A stretch of 64,000 nt of DNA. Origin: Lama guanicoe (Eukaryota). The stretch lies in NCBI GenBank assembly GCA_013239625.1, contig MU057352.1, forward strand, positions 30,077,277 to 30,141,276, in the 5' to 3' direction. Position 1 is the stretch's first letter; each line of letters begins with the position of its first letter. The notes beneath the pieces were generated by a model, which did no database searches, was not told the origin of the DNA, and saw only the letters and a program-made list of their open reading frames with translations. A program made the position numbers and the translations under genes. Below are positions 25,362-30,773 of this stretch, one piece after another.

Positions 25362-26919
25362 CTAGAAAGAGAAAACATGAAATCAAGTGGTCAGTGCCGG
25401 GAAGGAGAGAGCCAGGGTATGGAGGAACGGTGCTCCTCCCATGGTCCAGACTGCACTCCCCGTCTGGCAGCCTTCCCGGATTCTGCACACTCTAAAGTTC
25501 ACCCCAGCAGCCCGTCGTCCCTGCCAGTCCAGCAGGCATGGACCATGGCCACCAACAGGGCTGACTGTGCCCCAGTCGTGATGCCCCAACTGTGATCACA
25601 GCAATACGCACCCCCCCAATATATGACCACAATTCCAAGTTTTCTGTGCTTTCTCCAGACTTCATTATGTCCCATCCTGGACACACCCCAAATTTGACCA
25701 TGTACCCACATTTCAATTCAGTCCCCATGTCACCAATACATTAATTTATCGTTGCACCAATAATTTGCCAAGTACCTACATTTTGTGGGTCACTTTTCCA
25801 GGAGTTGGGAGGGGCAGGAATGATTAAACTATAGCCTCTGCCCTCAAGCACGGTGGCTGAGATTGCGTGGGTGTAAGTTCTTAGTAACGGCTGGCTTAAG
25901 AGAGGGACAAGTTTCCTGACCGTTAGTTTCCTCCCTTACACGACAGGCGGGCAGCAGCGGGCCAGTGGACGCCGCGCGCACTAAAGGAGCGCCTGGCAGC
26001 GGCCACACAGGTGAGCTGCTGTGGGTGCTGCTGCTGTTGTGCGCCTGTCATTCTGCACTTTGGAGGAAGAGAAAAAGGAGGAGGGAAGACGGGAAAAGGG
26101 AAGGGACCCCATTTGCCATTTTCTGTAGAGGGACAGCAAAACGGTCAGATCTTCTTGCCGTGACTTGTTTGTCCTGCAGCGTGACTGCTGCTTGCACGAC
26201 GACGTAAGCCATGTATCTGGCCAACTCATGTTTGTTGTTTGTTCGCTGCAAGCTGCAGTCTAGGTCCCAGGACCAAAGATGACTCAGTCACGAGCCCTGC
26301 CCACTTTCAATACTCAGTGTTAAGTTCGGAAAAGAAACCTGAACAGGGCTTGTGAAGTTCTCACAAAAGAGATGCAACCAAACCCAAACCTCTCACTAGA
26401 CTCTGGTAATGTGGTCTCTCTCCTGCATCCCTCCAGGCCCACGGCAGCCACGCCCCCCGAGAGCTACAGCATCCGTCTGTCCAACCCTCATCTCTGAAAA
26501 GAGCCCCTGTGAAATTCTCTTCAGAGTCCCAGATGGGCGGTCTGTTTCTGTAGAACATTGTGCTACGGCTGATTCTGGGGCATACGAGACGCTTGGGGCT
26601 GCCAGCAAACCTGACCTGCACGCAACGGAGAGGGCGGGGGAGGAAGGAAGTCAAAGAACAAGGCAAATATGGAAAAAGAGCAATGAACTAAGAATGAACA
26701 TGACCAGTGCTGGATCCCTCACCAGCACCCCACACCAGTGAGAGGACCAGGAGGGAAGATTGCAAACCGGCCAGCAGGTGACTACACGTCCAGTCTTCGG
26801 ACTGACACCAAGTTCCCCTGCTGAGTTTACGACTAACCCATCTATCCAAAACTTTATTCCCATTCTTGTCCTGCCTCTGTTCCCCTCAGGATGGAGGAGT
26901 ATCAGAGAAAAGGGGGGGC

Positions 26920-27556
26920 TGCAACTGAGCAGGACCCTGAGGGGCCTCCCCAGGTACAAGCCCCTCTGTGTCCCCGCTTCTTGTCTGGCCTTCCCGGAGT
27001 TCCAAAGAGCAGACTCAAGCAGTTACTAACTAGGGAAGTGAGGGAATGCAGAAATAGAGGAAAGGTAGTTAAGCAAGAAGAGTTATGGTAAAGAAAGCAA
27101 CAGTCCAGCAAGAAAACAGAGTCCCAGGCCTCCTAGTTTCTCAAGGGGTACACAACAATCTGATGCACACCTGTGAGCTGTTCTGCAGAAACTGAGACCC
27201 CCCCCCGTTAGAGGACAGTAACTACCTCTGACCACAAGCATGGAGACCCCAGACTAGCTGGGACCAGAAGGCTGACGATTAAGATTCCTGACACATCACC
27301 CTGTTACCTCACCATCAACTAATCAGAAGAATGTCTGTGAGCTGGTCACACACCCTGCAACCCTCACTCTAAAGTTGCCTTTAAAAACCCTTGTCTGAAA
27401 GCCACTGGGGATTCAGACTTCTTGGGCACTAGCCGCCCATTCTCCTTGCTTGGCGCCCTGCAAGTGAACGCTGTACTTTTCCTTCGCCACAACCTGCTGT
27501 CAGTGGATCAGTTTTGCGGTGCGTCAGGCAAGTGGTCCTGAGTTTGGCTGGTAACA
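26920..27556 (+). mobile_element. ERV1-class solo LTR (MER41-like)
   Basis: TG...CA termini (tgcaactgagcagg...gctggtaaca); near-TSD gggc/ggac; gcctttaaaaaccct TATA region; ctccttgcttggcgccctgca. Confidence 0.8.
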
Positions 27557-27959
27557 GGACAATGTCAGTCTGGTCCTGTGACCTTGGATAAATCTCATAA
27601 CCTCTCTGCACCTTAAGACCTTCATCAATTGGGGGGGGGTGAACACTCTACCAAATCCCCATGTACTTTATGTAGACTCATTTACAAGGTTAAGAGACTA
27701 TATACCATGGGGTACTGTAAGTACATTATTATGTTTTATCAACAGAATTAGAAGACAGAGAATAAACTACGCACACATAAACATCAGAGAAATCCATGAC
27801 GTTCTGTACTCGTGTCTCTTTAGACACTTGACACAGATTTTCTCCCTACCATTTTCTGTTTCGGCTTGGCTCCCTTCTTCTTCCCAAGGCTTTGCTTCAT
27901 GCACAGCAGGAAACCCTAACTACTGCAAGTTACACCACACCGATGACTGAGTTTGTATT

Positions 27960-28235
27960 CTTCCAGGGTATCCATTCACATCCCTGCTTCCTGCACATGC
28001 TCTTCCCCTTGTGGGGACGTTCTTTCCTCCAGGTTCTAAGCTTCCACTCACTCACCCCCCAATTAGGACTTGGCCCAGTCATTCCATTCCCATAAACCCA
28101 CCTCTGCCTGCCCTCCTCTCTGTCCTCTTGAAGAAATTTGTATGTATCTTCATTAATCATAACACACTCTGCCCTCCCATTTTGTCTGTCTGACTCTCTG
28201 ACTTCTGTGTAAGTGTCTTAAAGAAGAAACTATCC
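27960..28235 (+). mobile_element. L2 LINE 3' fragment containing the non-exonised counterpart of a human COL22A1 cassette exon
   Basis: cctgcacatgctcttcccct...ccctcctctctgtcctc...tttgtctgtctgactctctgacttctgtgtaag follows the order of the L2 3' consensus. Confidence 0.55.
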
Positions 28236-28829
28236 ACTCATTCATTTATTAATCCAATAAACATTTGTCAAGTACTTAAAAGGAGTCAGCCCCTACCTTC
28301 GGTACAAAGTCCATACACTTTTCCATCCACAGGGCCCAGTTTAGGGCCTGCCACAGCCCTCTAATAGCAAATTCCTGAATGCCAGAATGAATGGATCTAT
28401 CGTCACTCACGTCTTGTCAGGTACTGAATTCTACTTTTGACCAAAATCAACTTTCTACTGAGAAAGGAGCATAATAAAAGACACCTCCCAGCCTGCAGGA
28501 ATCTGAGTCACTGATTGATCTCTGCAGCTGGGTAGCCAGGCCCAGCTCCCTTTGTGTGTTTAAGGCCCATTGCGACGCTAACATTCCCTGCCTGCCCCGG
28601 AACTACACTTCGAGGCTTAATGGACTGAAACTTTTAGAAAATGGCTTCAAGAAAAGAGCAAAAGACCTTAATGCTCTGTTAGCAAAACCAAGAGGGCTCA
28701 ACTAGAAAAAAGGGGGCACATGAGCTATAATCTGTAATACTGACTGCAGTAACTGTTTTGGCTGCAAGACATTCTGGGCCAGTTCAACAGTGTTCAGGGA
28801 AGAAATGAGTGAGGCCGTGGAAGGAGAAT

Positions 28830-29030
28830 GACATTTACTGAACAACCACCATGTGCCATCAGAACACTTATCTGCAGGAGCCCTTTGGGGGTTAAATATG
28901 CTTTATTCCTTTATACAGAGAAGGGACAGTCTCAGAAAGAATGAGCCACTTGCCTTCAAGTCATCTATCTTGTAGGCAGCTGAGCTAGGATCCTAACCCA
29001 GTTCTGTATGAAGGCAAAGCCTGCTCATTT
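28830..29030 (-). mobile_element. MIR SINE fragment
   Basis: acatttactgaacaaccaccatgtgcc...ttttatacagagaaggga...gagctaggatcctaacccagttctg. Confidence 0.6.
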
Positions 29031-30728
29031 TGCTAGGAAACAAGTGCCACCCAAGAGAAGGAAAGGCATCTTCACATATCTTCCTGTAGTTGTTAAGTAG
29101 TTAGGAAGGGCTACCCAGGTGCCCCTAACAACCTTTATATGGCTCCCTCCCTTGGTTCCCCAGGTGTGTTCAGTCAGCACCAGGGACAGCACCTGGGCAA
29201 GGAACAGGGCTGACCAGTCTCAGGGGTCACCCTCTGTGTCTCTGCCTCCCTCCCTCCCTCCCTCCCTCCCTCCTTTTCTCCCCAGGAGCTCTCAGTTCTA
29301 CAGCTAAAGACCTCTGAATCCCAACTCACCTTCCCAGCGCCAGTTAATTATGGAAACCTCTAAACTACATTCTAACTTAGAAACAAATATTTACAATACT
29401 AACACTGAAAGGGTCATGTTTACACATCCCACATTTTTAAAAAGAGGACTCCTTTGGCCAAAGGGACAGCGTGACTGACTAGGAGCCCCCGGAGTTGAAA
29501 CTAGCTGGTCAACAGGACCCCACGGCCCGGCCCTCCGCACGCCTCACCCGGGCTCTCAGCCTGGCTCCGCTCGGCAGGGCTGCCCCCCAACTCCCCTTGC
29601 GCTTCCTCTCTCCAACAGCGAGCCGACGGGTGAGTCAGGCCTCTCTAGATCCCCACCTTCTTGCTGCAACCCTAAGGCAGACTCCGCGGGGTGATCTAGC
29701 GACAAGGATCACTAATATTTACAGAGCGAGTACCTGTGACTAGGCAACCATGAGGCCAGGCAATCATTTCCATCTGTGTTATATCACTTTTTCCTAAACT
29801 CTGCCTGGGAGATACTTATCACCCTCATAAGTAATTATCGTAAGAGAAAGGACATCTTAAGCCACTTTCTCATTACCCCACTTCCCGTGTCCTTGCCTTC
29901 CTTTCTTCTAAGAGGCAATTTATTTCTTCTAGATCCTGAAGGTCCTACTCTCGGGGGAAACCTGAGAGCACAGGAGGCTGCCAGTCAGGCGCTGTGCTCA
30001 CTGAGTCACAGAGGAACCTCTGACAAACACCTTCACTCGGCTGTTAATTCGCAGGGTCCTCCAGAACCTGGGTGCTGCTTCCTGCTCCTCCACACACGCC
30101 CACCCGCACGTGCCCACCGCCCCGCACGCGCCCACTGCCCTGCAAGCACTCACTGCTCCAGGCACAAGGAACTACCTGATGTGCCTTCAAATCCAGGCAA
30201 AGTTGTTTCCATTTTTTTTTTCTCCTCAGAAACTAGGGAGCTGCCAAACATTTGCTTAGATCACTCAAAGAACGTTCTCATTTCTTTTTCCTTTGATCAT
30301 GAACAACAAACATGAACGCCATCAGGGGACTGCACACTAGCCTCCCTCTGACCTCAGTCAGTGCAAGCTCAGTGCGTTCACACAGGTCACCTGCCTGAAC
30401 AGCAGAAAAAGTCATGGAGCAAACAAGTTAAACGTAGACACGGCCATGATTCCTGGGGCCTTGAGTCCCGCATCCTGGATGTCATTGAAAACAAGCCTTT
30501 AATACACAACAAAAACCACATGCTCTGTGATCATGTTGCTCTATTAAGCACCAATTGTGTGGAAATTACTTCAATGTCACAGTTTAGAGTCACAGAACCT
30601 TGAGATGGGTGGAAAATGAGAAACATGGAAGAAAACTGAGGTGACCAGAGATTCTTACCATTAAGTTTTGCACGGCCCCTTTCTATGTGCAACCCATGGT
30701 GCCCACAGTTTGCTGCATAAATACTCAC

Positions 30729-30773
30729 CTTGGTTCCTAGAAGCCCAGGTAACCCAGGTGGTCCACGAAGCCC
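30729..30773 (-). CDS. COL22A1: COL22A1 exon, 45 nt, [15 protein letters not shown]
   Basis: tccccAG acceptor, GTGAGT donor. Confidence 0.94.

Follow-up and report, generated by a model that had tools for sequence, protein, structure and literature searches.

The 59-nt stretch analyzed here is a real but ordinary LINE-2 (L2) fossil on the camel side. The favored reading, to which we give about an even chance, is that it is a silent fragment of an ancient L2 in antisense orientation, within an intron removed in one piece by splicing, and possibly the ancestral site of a 20-residue insert in human collagen XXII. The human COL22A1 chain is assumed to carry this insert, with three cysteines, between ...LGTK and GDRGAP..., and one human isoform is assumed to be without it. 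Coordinates refer to the window, the whole 64,000-nt stretch of Lama guanicoe DNA that was analyzed (Table 1).

The minus strand of the window carries a run of phase-0 exons that translate into Gly-X-Y repeats. The vWA exon located about 90 kb past the window end has 100% identity to a Camelus dromedarius protein and 86-90% identity to mammalian collagen XXII, and by these identities the gene on the minus strand is assigned to camelid COL22A1. The helix around the exon junction consists of 13 Gly-X-Y triplets bounded by two one-residue imperfections. The continuous helix described in the earlier note therefore holds locally, but a one-residue imperfection interrupts it at either end of the segment. 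Elsewhere on the minus strand of the window, identical translated stretches at 6604-6569 and 6196-6161 lie 408 nt apart, which suggests an intronic tandem duplication or an assembly repeat.

Table 1. Features of the COL22A1 intron and its flanks, in window coordinates.
Feature	Position	Strand	Remarks
COL22A1 exon 5' of intron	30773-30729	(-)	45 nt, phase 0, 5 Gly-X-Y triplets, AG/GT, donor GTGAGT
COL22A1 exon 3' of intron	25361-25284	(-)	78 nt, phase 0, AG/GT
GT-AG intron, 5367 nt	25362..30728	(-)	excised in one piece according to the RNA joint table
59-nt stretch	28216-28158	(-)	L2-derived; weak AG acceptor; AT where the donor would be
Nearest good donor 3' of stretch	28102	(-)	GAG/GTGGGT, 7.7 bits; exon would be 115 nt, out of frame
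Next good donor 3' of stretch	28056	(-)	8.0 bits; exon would be 161 nt, out of frame
AG-60nt-GT candidate	29192-29133	(-)	Cys-free open frame; acceptor of 9.0 bits but a weak donor (2.0)
Degraded L2 3' end	~28400-27980	(-), antisense to COL22A1	profile and consensus alignment; CATT-type reverse of L2 tail first on gene strand
Nested piece with L2 tail, ~72-74 nt	28231..28325	(+), sense to gene	profile match 28237-28305; interrupts the antisense L2
L2 3'-end fragment	25763-25849	(+), sense to gene	trimmed profile; E 1e-4 (first of the two fragments)
L2 3'-end fragment	26249-26303	(+), sense to gene	trimmed profile; E 8e-4 (second of the two fragments)

Camelid RNA was surveyed for splicing of this intron. 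The survey listed 24 runs, and four RNA or presumed-RNA runs were aligned to the whole intron. Runs X15, X16 and X20 and the DNA run X9 were aligned to 27750-28700, and runs X21-X24 were left out because they shared hardly any words. One RNA contig from run X17 skips 5367 nt between CT..AC boundaries and joins the exons at 30729 and 25361 directly, as the earlier note had proposed. This contig has a depth of 30.5 with 47 letters on its shorter side, and it comes from one of the four runs aligned to the whole intron. X17 contigs also join exon 30773-30729 to its upstream exon. Only the direct joint, and no inclusion junction, was present among the joints listed, although assembled contigs may drop rare isoforms. 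Contigs from X15, X16 and X20 pass unspliced through the acceptor or donor position of the stretch. These three runs and X9 gave no joints in 27750-28700, and none of the joints and loose ends listed for six RNA or presumed-RNA runs falls at 28216, 28102 or 28056. The RNA contigs diverge by ~3-5% from the window sequence, so their source is probably a related camelid. Many RNA contigs stack on an interspersed repeat of ~750 nt at 26807-27560, which has 2333 candidate genome matches with the best copies 70-77% identical. If this repeat is lineage-specific, it alters the proportions of the intron relative to other mammals.

The same junction was compared in 29 long collagen XXII models, only three of which (cat, kangaroo rat and sifaka) cover both flanking exons. 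In cat (P0124) and in kangaroo rat (P0142) the flanking exons join directly and the insert is absent, and a hand reading of the frameshifted duck model P0024 gave the same direct join. The sifaka model has a 12-residue filler at the junction that begins with VS and resembles donor read-through elsewhere in the model. Fish models were too fragmentary for polarizing the junction. The X17 joint from a related camelid supports absence of the insert in camelids, as the earlier note claimed for this species, and cat and kangaroo rat are likewise without it. Homologue searches, cluster look-ups, an HMMER representative search, PDB and the ESM Atlas did not yield a primate COL22A1 with the insert or any anthropoid sequence across the junction, and metagenome scans yielded no mammalian contigs over this intron.

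A repeat profile was made from copies in the same genome, with the COL22A1 intron left out of the build. A 20-base seed had 361 exact genome matches versus 0 for its reversed control. Ninety of these copies were retrieved for the profile, and 15 further copies from a second motif were added. The second motif falls in the mir-28-type segment, which the preceding version of the consensus already contained. The profile spans only ~380 nt of the 3' end. Single-sequence DNA searches were too insensitive for this L2, returning two matches, one match or one seed. The repeat family ends in a TGAA-type tail, as in L2, and the profile matches both arms of 3/3 mir-28-family loci. These loci are listed as L2c pairs in the available part of PMC6433296, and on the basis of that listing the repeat family is identified as L2.

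After three rounds, the profile aligned to the gene strand at 28446-27982 (E 0.0047, with high composition bias) and placed, of its own accord, a ~73-nt gap upstream of the 59-nt stretch. A trimmed profile built from 113 copies matched 28355-28307 (E 0.002-0.011) and, on the opposite strand, 28237-28305 (E 0.058). Across 303 aligned columns, the degraded L2 is ~73% identical to the consensus built from this genome. With the gap removed, the consensus aligned end-to-end with a score of 331.5 compared with 159 ± 24 (maximum 240.5) for 300 dinucleotide shuffles, and the portion of the alignment from 28233 onward scored 218.5 compared with 151 ± 20. The uncut 28400-27980 interval scored 277 on the gene strand versus 140 on the other strand, a score attained by 11 of 1497 random genomic windows. 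These scores bear out the earlier placement of the stretch inside an antisense L2. The 84 nt around the stretch alone match the L2 consensus at chance level (521/1000 shuffles), and HMMs likewise did not rise above shuffles. Assignment of the stretch to L2 is therefore due to its collinearity with the flanking L2 sequence and not to its own similarity. As judged by the profile searches, 28400-27980 is the sole well-supported antisense L2 of the intron.

The edges of the nested piece are uncertain, at either 28305-28234 or 28324-28251. Its L2 tail supplies branch-point-like motifs, TTAAT at -36 and TTGAC at -55 from the stretch, which may act as branch points. The predicted fold pairs the two L2 tails in a hairpin, which was rejected as a feature because its z-score is -0.30. 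An Rfam scan of the intron gave seven matches, none near the gathering score and none at the 59-nt stretch. A mir-28-family hairpin above the Rfam cut-off is located on the same contig ~1.1 Mb from the window (L169 1501-1568; G000:C55226:31279556-31279623), and from synteny this is likely miR-151. The L2c 3' ends that give rise to miR-28, miR-151 and miR-708 in the accessible text of PMC6433296 cover the L2 3'-end portion seen here, and the 59-nt stretch begins in the miR-28-5p/151-5p segment. Unlike the miR-28-type L2c pairs described there, the L2 pieces in the COL22A1 intron have no notable hairpin and are nested rather than forming a miRNA pair.

The gene-strand sequence given in the earlier note was located at 28216-28158, where 59 nt are preceded by tttcttctttaAG and followed by ATTAAT. 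The dead donor is seen in the window sequence, with AT instead of GT directly after 28158. A GT or GC donor is missing at the stretch's 3' end, and X9 and X20 have no listed difference there. The length of 59 nt, in the window and in X9, is not divisible by three. Splice weight matrices were trained on 22 exons of the window, with 2 of the 22 donor picks misplaced. The AG acceptor reported earlier is present but weak, scoring -1.8 bits versus 8.3-20.1 for the 22 real acceptors and ranking 77 of 448 among the AGs of the intron. The AG at 28218-28217 aligns to a pyrimidine run plus AAG in the L2 consensus, and 29 of 69 copies retain the AG, with 71% pyrimidines upstream. Since the L2 consensus already supplies both the AG and the pyrimidine run, the acceptor-like site does not point to an exon in the past. 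The L2 consensus has GT at +9, +14, +64 and +98 and none exactly 60 nt past the AG. The camelid site probably stays silent owing to its weak acceptor, the lack of a donor at 59 or 60 nt and the out-of-frame position of the nearest good donors. In X15 and X16, which belong to one study and have a depth of ~2, one base is added after 28209 to give a 60-nt stretch with an open frame by hand reading. The 60-nt length in this relative was considered as proof of an ancestral exon and rejected, since the L2 consensus has the camel spacing; the extra base may be an insertion of the relative's own.

The motifs EVRESD, MGGQ and CVM had been described as lying across different frames. MGGQ is indeed in a separate frame, but EVRESD and CVM share one, so the match to the human peptide requires a 2-nt shift and a compensating shift. 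The MGGQ frame hits a stop at the end of the 59-nt stretch. The EVRESD/CVM frame contains one Cys, and coding constraint is not evident in it. None of the 36 AG-60nt-GT candidates elsewhere in the intron resembles the Cys-rich insert, which agrees with the earlier expectation of no insert-like exon outside the stretch. Only one of the 36, at 29192, has an acceptor within the range of real exons, and no RNA joint falls at this candidate among the joints listed. Inspection of the three gene-strand frames by eye did not reveal an intact copy of the insert elsewhere in the intron.

Likeness to the human insert was scored by hand at the site with the assumed human peptide, and the scores, which are lower bounds, were compared with scripted shuffles of the peptide composition. 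Without gaps, hand counting in the best single frame gave 5 identities among 20 residues and no fewer than 21 mismatches in 60 bases. Among 5000 ungapped shuffles, 0.06% equaled the score of the assumed peptide at the site, 25% at some AG and 75% intron-wide. With gaps and simple scoring, the score was equaled by 0/600 shuffles at the site, 105/600 inside the L2 and 532/600 anywhere in the intron. The gapped HOXD70 hand score of 2371 was reached by 0/600 shuffles at the site, 128/600 at AG starts and 282/600 (47%) anywhere in the intron, and it equals the median best intron-wide score of shuffled peptides. Inside the L2, a window picked after the fact, 21/600 shuffles (3.5%) reached 2371. In 200 runs of simulated orthologues, scores of 2371 or lower were obtained in 1%, 6%, 15.5% and 35% at 75, 70, 65 and 60% identity, respectively. 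The claimed likeness of the stretch to the assumed human peptide thus goes beyond shuffles at the site but is at chance level across the intron. The whole 5.4-kb intron was open to the search behind the earlier note, so the likeness is not significant by itself.

The leading alternative, to which we assign a probability well short of even, is that the likeness is due to chance and the human exon comes from other intronic DNA, such as a different repeat, one confined to primates, or sequence since deleted from the camel. Intron-wide shuffles do as well under all three scorings, only five residues of 20 agree in the frame that matches best, the camel stretch and the human insert are both purine-rich, and a score of 2371 is low for a true orthologue (6% of simulations at 70% identity, 15.5% at 65%). 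The likeness gains some weight against chance from its position. It starts at most 1 nt away from the AG that forms the acceptor-like site of the L2 consensus, ends at an AT one transition away from GT, and sits in the sole well-supported antisense L2, the fragments at 25763-25849 and 26249-26303 facing the other way. Orthology of the 59-nt stretch with the human insert exon, as judged from these sequence comparisons, is close to a coin toss. If the two are orthologous, gain in primates would be far likelier than loss.

Loss would require that the boreoeutherian ancestor already used the cassette as an exon and that camelids and other lineages lost it by donor mutation, which we consider improbable. 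The AG and pyrimidine run are present and the relative's 60-nt copy has an open frame, but the L2 itself supplies both the AG and the pyrimidine run, and the camel frame has a single Cys and no signal of coding constraint. With direct joins in both cat and kangaroo rat and a sifaka filler resembling intron read-through, an ancestral exon would need several independent losses. Low-level use of the AG at 28216 with the donor at 28102 or 28056, giving an out-of-frame exon subject to nonsense-mediated decay, is the least probable reading. In its favor, the donors at 115 and 161 nt are good (7.7 and 8.0 bits, respectively) and branch-point-like motifs lie at -36 and -55; against it, the acceptor scores -1.8 bits at rank 77/448 and the six RNA or presumed-RNA runs have no joint or loose end there among those listed.

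In the preferred reading, in which the stretch is a silent L2 piece and possibly the ancestral site of the insert, the L2 would have inserted before the mammalian radiation. A second L2 tail would have landed later inside the first, bringing the branch-point-like motifs. Point changes in the primate line would then have created a GT donor 60 nt past the AG, giving an in-frame cassette with Cys codons. Such an in-frame insert would split the 13-triplet helix segment into 7 + 6. A fuller proposal, made tentatively and rated a little below even, is that the three-Cys, helix-breaking insert of human reference collagen XXII arose from a nested L2 fossil that is silent in other mammals, through an L2 acceptor, a branch point in the nested tail and a primate donor mutation.

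If the human link is true, the two species would provide a clean before-and-after view of how a very old L2 became a coding exon within a collagen triple helix. At one spot the human reference chain would not match those of mouse, cat and camel, and animal models may be without a Cys-bearing helix interruption. At muscle-tendon junctions the insert might provide new disulfide links; alternatively, it could be a minor form mistaken for the canonical one. This raises the question of whether recombinant and variant studies of human collagen XXII use the main isoform.

In the exonization of antisense Alu elements, the repeat brings a pyrimidine run and an AG, and a few changes finish the exon. The COL22A1 site likewise has an antisense repeat with a pyrimidine run and an AG, but compared with the Alu cases in the available part of PMC6924539 the L2 is older and its consensus lacks a GT 60 nt past the AG. 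The age of L2 is given as 100-300 million years in the accessible text of PMC6433296. L2-derived exons are a known class, and the portion of Attig et al. (2018, PMC6108849) at hand counts 594 with >5% inclusion in human. Exonization of an L2 in human COL22A1 would be of this known kind and is plausible. In contrast to the human exons described in that portion, just the silent non-primate site is seen here, and the human COL22A1 exon, if real, would be in frame within a collagen helix and add Cys. The IL18R1-Short transcript, as described in the available part of PMC13232192, is similar in that an old and widely shared L2 takes part in species-restricted RNA processing. There the L2 provides a poly(A) signal within an intron and the receptor is truncated, whereas an internal coding cassette is proposed here.

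A literature search found no publication on a human COL22A1 insert exon. The supplements of PMC6924539, PMC2394776, PMC2203978 and PMC6637531 and the smaller supplements of PMC6108849 have no COL22A1 row, and the accessible parts of PMC6307901, PMC11945623 and PMC8851264 contain no mention of the insert. In the supplement of PMC2592719 there are two COL22A1 exons other than this one, together with two pseudo-Alu rows. Row Ex297 of PMC2592719 is a 39-nt human COL22A1 exon labeled PS, taken as primate-specific. The models of cat, kangaroo rat and wolverine have a peptide similar to that of Ex297 at the corresponding position, so the PS label is likely a false call.
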